23,294 nucleotides of DNA. Origin: a virus. Lineage: Duplodnaviria > Heunggongvirae > Uroviricota > Caudoviricetes. The position numbers and the translations under genes were made by a program. A model generated the notes under the pieces. It searched no databases. It was given only the letters and a program-made list of their open reading frames with translations, and was not told where the DNA came from. The stretch lies in IMG/VR virus record IMGVR_UViG_2579778702_000001. One strand, given 5' to 3'. Shown here in pieces: positions 1,187 to 3,991 of the stretch (within the stretch, counting starts at the first letter, position 1; each line of letters begins with the position of its first letter).

Positions 1187-3991
1187 TTATACCTGCGATA
1201 CGTTATACCATGTTCCGTTAATTAACTTTTGTATTGGTCTGAATACTGCCGGATCATCACCATCGACTTCACCGATAATACCAAGCCCCGTGATTACATG
1301 GCCTGATTTTTCATACATCACACCTTTCTTCATGGTCTGAACAACTCGTGTGCCAAGTCTGACATCTCTCACATAGCGGGAATCAAAGTTACCGTAATCC
1401 GAGGGGTTAACACGCCCTGTAATATTTATGGTTTTATTACTTTGAATGCTTCCGGAGACAAAGCGCATAACATGGACGTTATTAGCATAAACATCCAGAT
1501 TACCATCGCCATTTTGTTTAAAGCCCGTGTCATTATCACCCAATACAATCGAATTACCGCCAAGAGCACTGGATGTTCCGATACCCAGTGCACCATTCAG
1601 TTGACCACCAGATAACGGCAGTGCACCAACATCTCCTGCTGAAGGTTTTCTGGTGGTGGTGTAAAATTCGGACCAGTCGGCTTCAAAACCATAACCATCA
1701 CGGGCTGAACGATAAAAAATACCGCCATTTTTATAATTAATCCGAAACTGAGCTGCAGGACAACTTCCTTCTCCCATATAAAAATGAATAATTAACGTTG
1801 ATGCACCACTAATAGTTGCGTTATAGGCTCCGCTACTCCAGTTCCATCCAACTGCTTTATCATTCGCAACGGTGCTTCCTGTTTTCCCTAAGGCAAACGC
1901 ACCAACATGACTTGCTTTTAATGTGATATCGGAGGAACCATCAAAAACCACATTGCTTATTTTCCTGGCAGTTTTTAATTTTGCAGCTGTAGAAGCATTG
2001 CCGGATAGTTCACCAGAAAGGCCACCGCTGAATGTTTGTCGATTAGTCCAGGTATTCGCTGTACTGAGTAACGGTATTTTCTCCCCGCTTGTGCCGAGTT
2101 CTCGTAAACCGAGGTATTCGATAACGGCGGCAACGGTCGATTTCGCAAGAATATCCCGCCCAACTTTTGTCAGGGTTGCCAGACTGGCAACATCATTCCC
2201 CGTAAAATACGGAAACCTGTCTGCCGCAGTAGCAAGCCCGGCCAGCGCCGTCAGGGTGGCATCTTTCGGTTGCTTACCCGCAAGCGCGCTAGTCATGGTG
2301 GTCGCAAAATTCGGGTCGTTGCCCAACGCCGCAGCCAGCTCGTTCAGCGTATTCAGTGCGTCAGGCGACGAGTCCACGAGGGCAGCGATCGCAGCCATAA
2401 CATAAGCCGTGCTTGCGATTTGGGTATTATTCGTTCCCTGTCGCGCAGTTGGTGTTGTTGGCGTTCCGGTCAGTGCAGGACTATTTAAGGGCGCTTTCTT
2501 GTTCGTTTCACCCATTACCGCCTTAACCGCTTTTGGCGTTGCCGCCAGTGACTCGGAAGTGCTGTTGGTCGCACTGCTGAGCTGTACTATCCCCTTTTTC
2601 GTCGTGCTCGCATCCTCAAGCGCCACGGCGGATGCAATATCCTCTGCCCGTTTTGCCGCTGTCTCAGCGCGCGTTGCTGCAGATTCCGCCGTACTTTTGC
2701 TCTGAGCTGCTGCCGTCGCACTGCCAGCTGCCTCTGTCGCCTTCGTGGATGCCGTCGTGGCGCTACCCTTCGCTGCTGACGCCTGTCTGGTCGCCTCATC
2801 TTTTGAAGCAGACGCAGATGATGCCGATGACGCCGCCGAACTGGCTGACGATGCGGCTGCCGCCTTAGAGGAAGCAGCATTGTCTGCTGAAGTCTTTGCA
2901 TTTGTTTCAGAGGTTTTTGCTGCAGAAGCAGACCTCGCTGCTGCAGTGGCTTGCTCAGTGGCTTTGCCAGCCTTCGTTGTGGCTGTTGAAGCGGATGATG
3001 CGGCGCTTTCTGCCGATTTTCCGGCGGCGGTGGCACTGGCTGAGGCCTGCCCGGCACTTGTTGACGCGGCACTGGCAGATAATGCAGCCGCTGTTTTTGA
3101 ACCTGCCGCAGCTGAGGCGCTCTGTCCCGCTGCTGTTTCAGAAGACTTAGCGTTCGTCTCGGACGTTTTTGCCGCCTTCGCGGAATTTCCTGCCGCCGTT
3201 GCCGAGGAAGCTGCACTACTGGCACTTGATGATGCATTCGTTTCTGAAGATTTCGCTGCCTCTTTTGAGGCCGCCGCACCCCGTGCCGAGGTGGCAGCTT
3301 CTGACGCCTTCGTGGTCGCTGTGGATGCAGAAGTGGCTGCTGATTTTTGTGATGCTGCCGCATTCGTTTCTGACGTTTTCGCGGCACTGGCACTGGTAGC
3401 TGCCGCGCTTTTTGAGGACTCTGCAGCGGCAGCACTTTTCGATGCTTCACTGGCCTTTGTTGATGCCGCTCCTGCGCTGGAAGACGCTGACTGAGCCGAC
3501 GACGCGGCCTGTCCGGCTGACGTGCTGGCTGCGCGTGCTGAGCCTGCAGCATCAGTCGCATGGGTTGCCGCCTCACGGGCTGATGTGCGGGCATCGCTGG
3601 CTGACTTCTTCGCGGCTGCCGTGTTCTGTGCCACTGCGGACGCGTTACGCGCCACCTCTTCCACCATCAGTTCAAAACGGCGCAGTGCCTCTGGCCGGAC
3701 ATCATCCTCCGTCATGGCACCGAGAAAATCATTCAGCGTACCGGGTCGGGAATCTTCATACACGGTGATGGTCCCGGCATGTGAAGGCGGAAAACCTTCA
3801 ACCAGCAGGGTGACGCTGTACTGACCATGCTCAACATCCATGCTGTAACGTCCGGCTTCATCCGGATTTTCAGAGGCCACCGTGTTCACCACCACCGTGC
3901 TGCTGGTTCGTCTGGCCTTCAGCACAATGGTGCAGTTTTGTATTGGTTTTCCTGTGCCATCTTTCAGTACGCCTGAAATTTTTACTGTCAT
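1187..3991 (-). CDS. stf: side tail fibre protein, intact; lambda Stf-like N-terminal and shaft part with a non-lambda C-terminal tip
   Basis: 934-aa ORF. The N-terminus [28 protein letters not shown]...[14 protein letters not shown]...[14 protein letters not shown] and the Ala/Ser/Thr-rich shaft with KTSETNA-type repeats match lambda Stf as recalled. Homology ends after ...[11 protein letters not shown]; the last ~300 aa differ from lambda. Sits immediately downstream of lom, as in lambda. Confidence 0.92.
2099..2124. other. DNA invertase crossover site (gix/hix/cix/pix-like), 26 bp, inside the stf coding sequence
   Basis: Plus-strand TTCTCGTAAACCGAGGTATTCGATAA matches the Mu gixL sequence TTCCTGTAAACCGAGGTTTTGGATAA (from memory) at 22 of 26 positions, with imperfect dyad symmetry. 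On the minus strand it encodes VIEYLGLRE, the last stretch conserved with lambda Stf. Position is +/-1 nt. Confidence 0.7.

Follow-up and report, generated by a model that had tools for sequence, protein, structure and literature searches.

A crossover site of the Gin family in a lambda-like side tail fibre gene and the probable switching of its tip by an invertase acting in trans

Inversion of fibre segments by serine invertases has been described for the G segment of phage Mu (Gin; gixL and gixR; S-U/S'-U'), the C segment of P1 (Cin; cixL and cixR), the Min system of p15B and the P segment of the e14 prophage of Escherichia coli K-12 (PinE; stfP/tfaP and tfaE/stfE), and the related Hin of Salmonella acts on hix sites to control a flagellin promoter, not a fibre coding sequence. 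In the Hin invertasome a Fis-bound enhancer lies about 100 bp from one of the sites (PMC3798978). The enzyme may come from another element: PinQ, PinR and PinE each invert the e14 P segment (PMC12529663), the first two being encoded by other prophages, Qin and Rac (PMC12529663; PMC4272514), and Fin of prophage Fels-2, according to work cited in PMC12529663, acts on Hin/hix of Salmonella and so offers a precedent for a cross-element invertase. In E. coli cultures, prophage fibre segments have been documented to flip (PMC4272514); e14 itself is called a lambdoid element, at least in the title of reference 33 of that paper, and the lambdoid phage LLS has two opposed tail-fibre genes and a DNA invertase, with Mu/P1-like switching of its side-tail-fibre tip considered likely (PMC12315714). 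The present analysis concerns a 26-bp sequence inside the side tail fibre gene (stf) of a lambda-like prophage on a stretch of 23,294 bp (IMG/VR record IMGVR_UViG_2579778702_000001), here called the window, which is the entire contig JMGT01000026.1 of draft assembly GCA_000687105.1. We consider it likely, with good confidence, that this sequence is the stf-proximal crossover of a Gin-family cassette, of the Mu G, P1 C or e14 P type, set on a lambda-like stf and inverted by an enzyme acting in trans.

The site occupies window positions 2099-2124 and reads TTCTCGTAAACCGAGGTATTCGATAA on the plus strand, with an inner half-site TTCTCGTAAACC, a core GA at 2111-2112 and an outer half-site GGTATTCGATAA. 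In the Mu genome record (AF083977) gixL and gixR have one and the same sequence, TTCCTGTAAACCGAGGTTTTGGATAA, at both boundaries of the G segment, and the window site is identical to it at 22 of 26 positions, the mismatches falling at positions 4, 5, 18 and 21 and the central GA being common to both. The original prediction, which had set Mu gixL beside this 26-mer and put the likeness at about 22 of 26, is thus confirmed in its figure, and the gixL sequence given with it agrees with the record. The 26-mer is unique in the window (both strands, up to three mismatches), and 100 dinucleotide-preserving shuffles gave no match to it at up to three mismatches. The e14 sites are more diverged, a single match of 20/26 having been found in the K-12 stretch read when up to six mismatches were allowed. 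On the minus strand the site is translated as IEYLGLRE, residues I624-E631 of the 934-amino-acid Stf, and its position in the fibre and its reading frame match those in Mu S, where the corresponding residues are IQNLGLQE. Comparison of Stf with lambda orf-401 and orf-314 by tblastn aligned residues 1-352 and 417-631 at 75-82% identity and ended at residue 631, with VIEYLGLRE facing VLEYLGAGE of lambda, which is where the same prediction had placed the last stretch conserved with lambda. Window 2099-2124 is therefore supported as a crossover site of the Gin/Hin/Cin/Pin family, lying in frame, as in Mu, at the junction of the constant and variable parts of stf.

The genes around the site have the layout of an invertible cassette. 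The whole of stf (1187-3991, minus strand) comprises a constant part, Sc (residues 1-622; 2125-3991, minus strand), which is lambda-like, with a PF08400 N-terminal domain (E = 2e-71) and an Ala/Ser-rich shaft, and a variable tip, Sv, of 303 amino acids (1187-2098, minus strand), which is currently fused to it. Beyond Sv lies tfa (651-1184, minus strand; PF02413), coding for the 177-residue tail fibre assembly chaperone cognate to Sv, and beyond that, in the silent orientation, come an alternative chaperone gene, tfa' (95-622, plus strand; PF02413; 175 residues, 56% identical to Tfa), and the final 31 codons of Sv', a silent tip (1-93, plus strand) that is cut off at the contig end. When the full Sv' is taken from the closest complete genome (see below), two fibre C-termini, each with its chaperone, converge as Sv-tfa/tfa'-Sv', which is the Sv-U/U'-Sv' order of the Mu G and P1 C segments. 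Window 1348-2130, to which no strand applies, is the right arm of an inverted repeat of 783 nt and 99% identity whose partner arm lies off the window, and because the crossover sites stand at the outer ends of this repeat, Sv and Sv' are identical over their first 243 amino acids and differ over the last 60 or so. Long internal inverted repeats of this kind are shared with P1, where they measure about 0.6 kb, and with p15B Min, in contrast to Mu, in which the inverted arms are only about 34 bp. The window phage also departs from Mu in the fibre itself, as it is lambda-like and carries a siphovirus Stf with a PF08400 N-terminus.

No partner site was found within the window (scan at up to three mismatches, both strands), the contig ending before the partner site and any invertase gene would be reached, and the left flank was therefore read in relatives. 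The closest complete genome, NZ_OZ040035.1 (H1; locus L001), is 100% identical over window 1-2600 and 99.1% over 1-4014, and leftward it continues with the rest of Sv' (full gene at L001 7161-8093), an inverted partner site, a 60-codon recombinase gene, tfa remnants, a class I S-adenosylmethionine (SAM)-dependent methyltransferase gene and potB. The partner site, TTCTCGTAAACCGAGGTTTTAGATAA, stands 840 nt from the window start, on its left side, with two differences and an unchanged GA core. The left repeat arm (L001 7129-7911) is 783 nt long and 99% complementary to window 1348-2130; both sites of H1 stand at the outer ends of the repeat, which terminates no more than 6 nt from the site. Each of the cassette loci (L001, L005-L009 and L012) has exactly two inverted sites, flanking Sv-tfa-tfa'-Sv'. 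In the cassette loci read, the outer half-site is always GGTATTCGATAA on the stf side and either GGTTTTAGATAA or GGTTTTAAATAA on the invertase side, so that position determines the outer halves, and the inner half-sites begin TTCTCG or TTCCTG depending on the cassette.

The invertase gene expected beside the partner site proved to be a stump. The "recombinase family protein" of H1 has 60 amino acids, matches PF00239 at residues 3-60 and retains Ser9, and it is without the remainder of the resolvase catalytic domain and without the helix-turn-helix. The same truncation occurs in three more lambda-like prophages, leaving 64 codons of the gene in two of them and about 60 in the third, where the annotation has a pseudogene. 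Together with H1 these four relatives span three integration sites; stump-bearing prophages were located at potB (TW10828), bioA/ybhB (strain 90-1) and trpA-ompW (strain 81009). The left flanks of H1 and 81009, stump and left site included, are 99.7% identical, and the prophage of the source strain presumably carries the stump as well. Among the relatives read, an intact neighbouring invertase gene was present only in P2-like prophages. Of what had been anticipated to the left of the window, an inverted partner and an invertase of about 190 residues, the first was thus found in H1, but the second was reduced to about 60-64 codons in four of four lambda-like relatives. In position the invertase gene agrees with that of Mu: it stands immediately outside the segment, points away from it and has the site upstream of its start codon, and at the DNA level the stump is almost the same as the 5' end of gin. 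However, the truncation sets these lambda-like relatives apart from Mu, from Hin/hix, where hin is intact, and from e14, which has kept its own intact pinE, and P1 differs further in that its intact cin reads towards the segment, with cixL at the cin 3' end.

That such cassettes invert in nature is evident from two pairs of genomes. In the strains EC958 and JJ2434, both of sequence type 131 (ST131), one and the same P2-like prophage occupies an identical chromosomal position; its cassette is homologous, and its invertase (WP_000905061.1 in EC958), at 199 amino acids, is intact and shares 80% identity with Gin and 77% with PinE. Between these two the 2782 nt separating the sites are inverted, at 99.7% identity; the arms of this cassette are 77% alike, and the breakpoint falls within about 70 nt that include the site. 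The second pair, 81009 and EC958 (ST131), shares the same lambda-like prophage at trpA-ompW, in both strains with a truncated invertase, and here the flanks are colinear and 100% identical, while 3119 nt are inverted at 99.8%, so that the 81009 prophage is a simple flip of that in EC958. This lambdoid cassette contains no long inverted repeat, and the overlap of the colinear and inverted alignments amounts to just 27 nt at either site. Of the half-sites, the inner TTCCTG and TTCTCG have been swapped and the outer ones have not moved. The crossover thus fell between positions 5 and 18 of the site, in the region of the central GA, which is the outcome predicted by serine-invertase strand exchange at the central dinucleotide. 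Gin and Hin are known to exchange strands at that dinucleotide (PMC3798978). The right site of 81009 agrees with the window site at 26 of 26 positions, and an identical 26-mer has accordingly recombined in an ST131 relative with its breakpoints inside the site. The proposal that the stf tip is switchable by inversion therefore gains from three sides, namely the convergent cassette in the window, the two inverted sites in all relatives read and the recombination of the identical 26-mer.

The extent of inversion was gauged by counting complete genomes with queries that included about 900 nt of flank, so that a flipped genome cannot cover them. The lambdoid segment was in the 81009-type orientation in 142 complete genomes and in the EC958-type orientation in 240, a count that may take in some non-ST131 cassettes sharing the repeat arm. 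Initial counts of 369 and 374 genomes were discarded, as a flipped genome still covers 83% of the queries used for them. Sister isolates also differ in orientation (4/0 as against 4/1-1 and 4/4; U12A as against U13A-U15A).

In the mechanism that we propose, a serine invertase dimer would bind each of the two inverted 26-bp sites, make 2-nt staggered cuts at the central GA and, by a 180-degree rotation, invert the segment of about 2.9 kb. Inversion would replace the last 60 or so residues of Stf, from Sv to Sv', and would bring tfa' in place of tfa into the transcribed orientation; receptor specificity would change, the two tips presumably binding different receptors. The neighbouring invertase gene of the lambda-like lineage has been cut to its first 60-64 or so codons; it has lost the DNA-binding domain entirely and the greater part of the catalytic domain, and it retains the 5' stretch corresponding to the enhancer annotated in the P1 record. 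Inversion would then be performed in trans by a Gin-family invertase from another prophage in the same cell, and a further route, for the window-type cassette, may be homologous recombination between the arms of the 783-nt repeat. With some 60-64 residues the product of the stump is too short to work as an invertase, and the enzyme that inverts the lambdoid segment would therefore have to be encoded elsewhere. The switch of the window strain is probably not autonomous but dependent on such an enzyme. A candidate donor is the P2-like prophage with the intact 199-residue invertase, which is present alongside the lambdoid prophage in EC958 and is also carried by JJ2434. In H1 the icd locus is occupied by another lambdoid prophage, not e14, and no Gin-type gene was seen in the stretch read, the rest of that genome being unexamined.

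The stump may have a function of its own. About 190 nt of 5' coding sequence are kept in the stumps, and the P1 record annotates the Cin enhancer within the 5' part of its invertase gene, at cin nt 19-90. The stretch of the stump homologous to this interval is identical to Mu gin at 70 of 72 positions and does not differ at all between the stump of H1 and that of the flipping 81009 prophage. An enhancer in this stretch may still be at work, and the stump may have been kept because of the enhancer it holds. An early guess at Fis sites, two G..C 15-mers at +119 and +167 from the site centre, was dropped once the enhancer turned out to be annotated at cin nt 19-90 in P1; G..C 15-mers at +95 and +144 from the site centre fit that enhancer better, as pattern matches only. 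We put forward, tentatively and at somewhat less than even probability, that the stump, which has kept just the upstream crossover site and the 5' stretch with the Fis enhancer, is no decaying coding sequence but has been selected as a cis-regulatory element of an orphan switch, the switching of the lambdoid tip having become slaved to the invertase of a co-resident, unrelated prophage of the P2-like or e14-like kind. If this is true, the host range of a phage depends on which other prophages share the lysogen.

Several points weigh against trans-driven switching in the window phage itself. The window-type tip stands in the window orientation in six of the six assemblies that carry it (H1-H6, from about three strains), and the flipped state, in which the stump would be joined to the window Sv tip, was found in none of the 5,426 complete E. 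coli genomes searched (at least 80% query coverage). The partner site and the invertase of the source strain lie off the window, and an intact invertase there is possible; the ST131 trans donor, for its part, is suggested by co-occurrence. It is therefore conceivable that the site and the silent cassette are intact but that the strain has no invertase in cis or in trans, so that the tip is effectively fixed, a reading with which the single orientation, the absence of flipped genomes and the truncated invertase of the relatives all agree. However, we regard such a frozen relic as doubtful. Only about three strains carry the tip, and a consensus assembly shows the majority orientation and conceals minority ones. 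Further, both sites, the stump and the enhancer stretch of H1 are essentially identical to those of the flipping ST131 prophage 81009, so that all cis elements of a prophage that does flip are present in the closest relative of the window, and that the 783-nt arms are 99% identical points to an exchange between them that still goes on.

The arms themselves raise a second alternative, that inversion proceeds by general, RecA-dependent homologous recombination through the 783-nt repeat and that the 26-mer is a mere historical boundary of that repeat. The repeat is long and nearly perfect, and arms of this kind prevent breakpoints from being mapped to the site. However, the ST131 lambdoid prophage inverts in the absence of any long repeat, with a breakpoint of at most 27 nt and exchanged half-sites, and the P2-like ST131 cassette, whose arms are far less alike, has its breakpoint confined to the neighbourhood of the site. 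In addition, the window-type repeat ends so close to the site as would be expected if the site defines the repeat, and general recombination as the sole route thus appears quite improbable. Least likely of all, and very improbable in our view, is that the source prophage has an intact gin/pin-like invertase immediately beyond the left end of the contig and flips its own tip as in Mu, P1 and e14, for although homologous cassettes with an intact 199-residue invertase exist and flip in P2-like prophages and the left flank of the source strain lies beyond the contig, a stump of about 60-64 codons occupies the same position in all four lambda-like relatives, at three integration sites and including the 99.1%-identical H1.

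Trans-driven inversion of a Gin-family cassette, the reading that we prefer, belongs with a well-known class, the Gin/Cin/Pin/Hin switches of fibre tips; its novelty is modest and the known working of such switches is left unchanged by it. Like the e14 P segment, the lambda-like cassette is a prophage tail-fibre segment that Pin-family invertases, those of other prophages included, would invert, and like LLS, a lambda-like phage would switch its tip, although LLS has its invertase gene present and, by its description, fibres reportedly unrelated to known ones. Less ordinary is a widespread lambda-like lineage that has a stump in place of its invertase and a segment that still flips in nature, which extends the known theme of action in trans. 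Inversion-based switching of host range, classic for Mu, P1 and e14, is here found on the lambda-like side tail fibre of widespread E. coli prophages, and the switch stays active in natural populations after loss of the prophage's own invertase. It provides a tractable case in which the phenotype of one prophage would depend on the enzyme of another. For assembly, it explains contig breaks and the orientation differences among sister isolates, and for annotation, the recurrent calls of "tail fiber protein, missing N-terminus" and of a 60-residue "recombinase family protein" beside stf. The annotations of certain relatives give stf as a pseudogene, or as a short coding sequence and a separate small open reading frame, beside the site, for example at L012 9913-11409 (EC958) and L007 828-3777 (TW10828). 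RefSeq annotation is blind to a fusion made by inversion, and these pseudogene and split calls may therefore often be artefacts of the invertible junction.

The fibre gene as a whole appears to be a mosaic. Sequenced lambdoid phages match window 2520-4000 only, and P2-like phages match 49-2606, P2-like prophages matching 476 nt of the "constant" part of stf beside the site (within 2125-2606) at about 97% DNA identity. The cassette together with some 160 upstream fibre codons thus looks to have been grafted en bloc onto a lambda-like stf, and the mosaic joint does not coincide with the crossover site but is about 160 codons upstream of it. In the phage collection, no record covers the chimera of lambda-like stf and cassette at 80% or more. 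Phage lambda itself (J02459; L010 2302-2327) has a relic of the outer half-site only, TTCTTGAATACC as against TTATCGAATACC, the inner half being unrelated, and to judge from these letters the tip of lambda may once have been joined at such a site.

A further form of exchange may have operated within the chaperone genes. The 81009 prophage was considered as a simple flip of H1, and this was ruled out, its tfa being chimeric and its distal tip a third, unrelated one. When the stf-proximal tfa of the ST131 lambdoid prophage (L009 4787-5320) was compared with L001 8095-8414 and 8651-8870, it appeared chimera-like, its N-terminal 320 nt or so being of the tfa' type and its C-terminal part of the tfa type. 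The 5' parts of tfa and tfa' in H1 are 73% complementary over 159 nt. Alignments of this kind suggest that additional exchanges may have taken place inside the convergent chaperone genes.

The remaining observations concern the surroundings of the cassette. Between the stump and the chromosomal junction, L001, L007, L009 and L012 have two remnants of tail-fibre-assembly genes and an intact gene for a class I SAM-dependent methyltransferase (5700-6900 for the remnants and methyltransferase in L001), while L008 has one tfa remnant and no methyltransferase was found in the stretch read there. This methyltransferase is possibly a moron. A consensus scan picked up a GC-rich hairpin (AAGGCCCGCTATCGGGCCTT; 628-647, minus strand) followed by a T-run in the middle of the invertible segment, where tfa and tfa' converge, and this hairpin is a likely candidate for the terminator of the stf-tfa transcript. 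The window starts inside Sv', its first base being separated by 90 nt, in H1 coordinates, from the inner end of the left repeat arm, and the contig break at position 1 was probably caused by repeated copies of the cassette in the genome. Upstream of stf are lom (4055-4660) and J (4728-8207), all three on the minus strand, as for lambda Stf. Finally, the repetitive shaft of Stf, rich in Ala, Ser and Thr (window 2600-3650, residues 120-470 or so), is about 65 residues longer than its counterpart in lambda Stf, its residues 353-416 forming an unaligned gap, and it yields many long spurious open reading frames in other frames, such as 2587-3594 on the minus strand and 2745-3494 on the plus strand.

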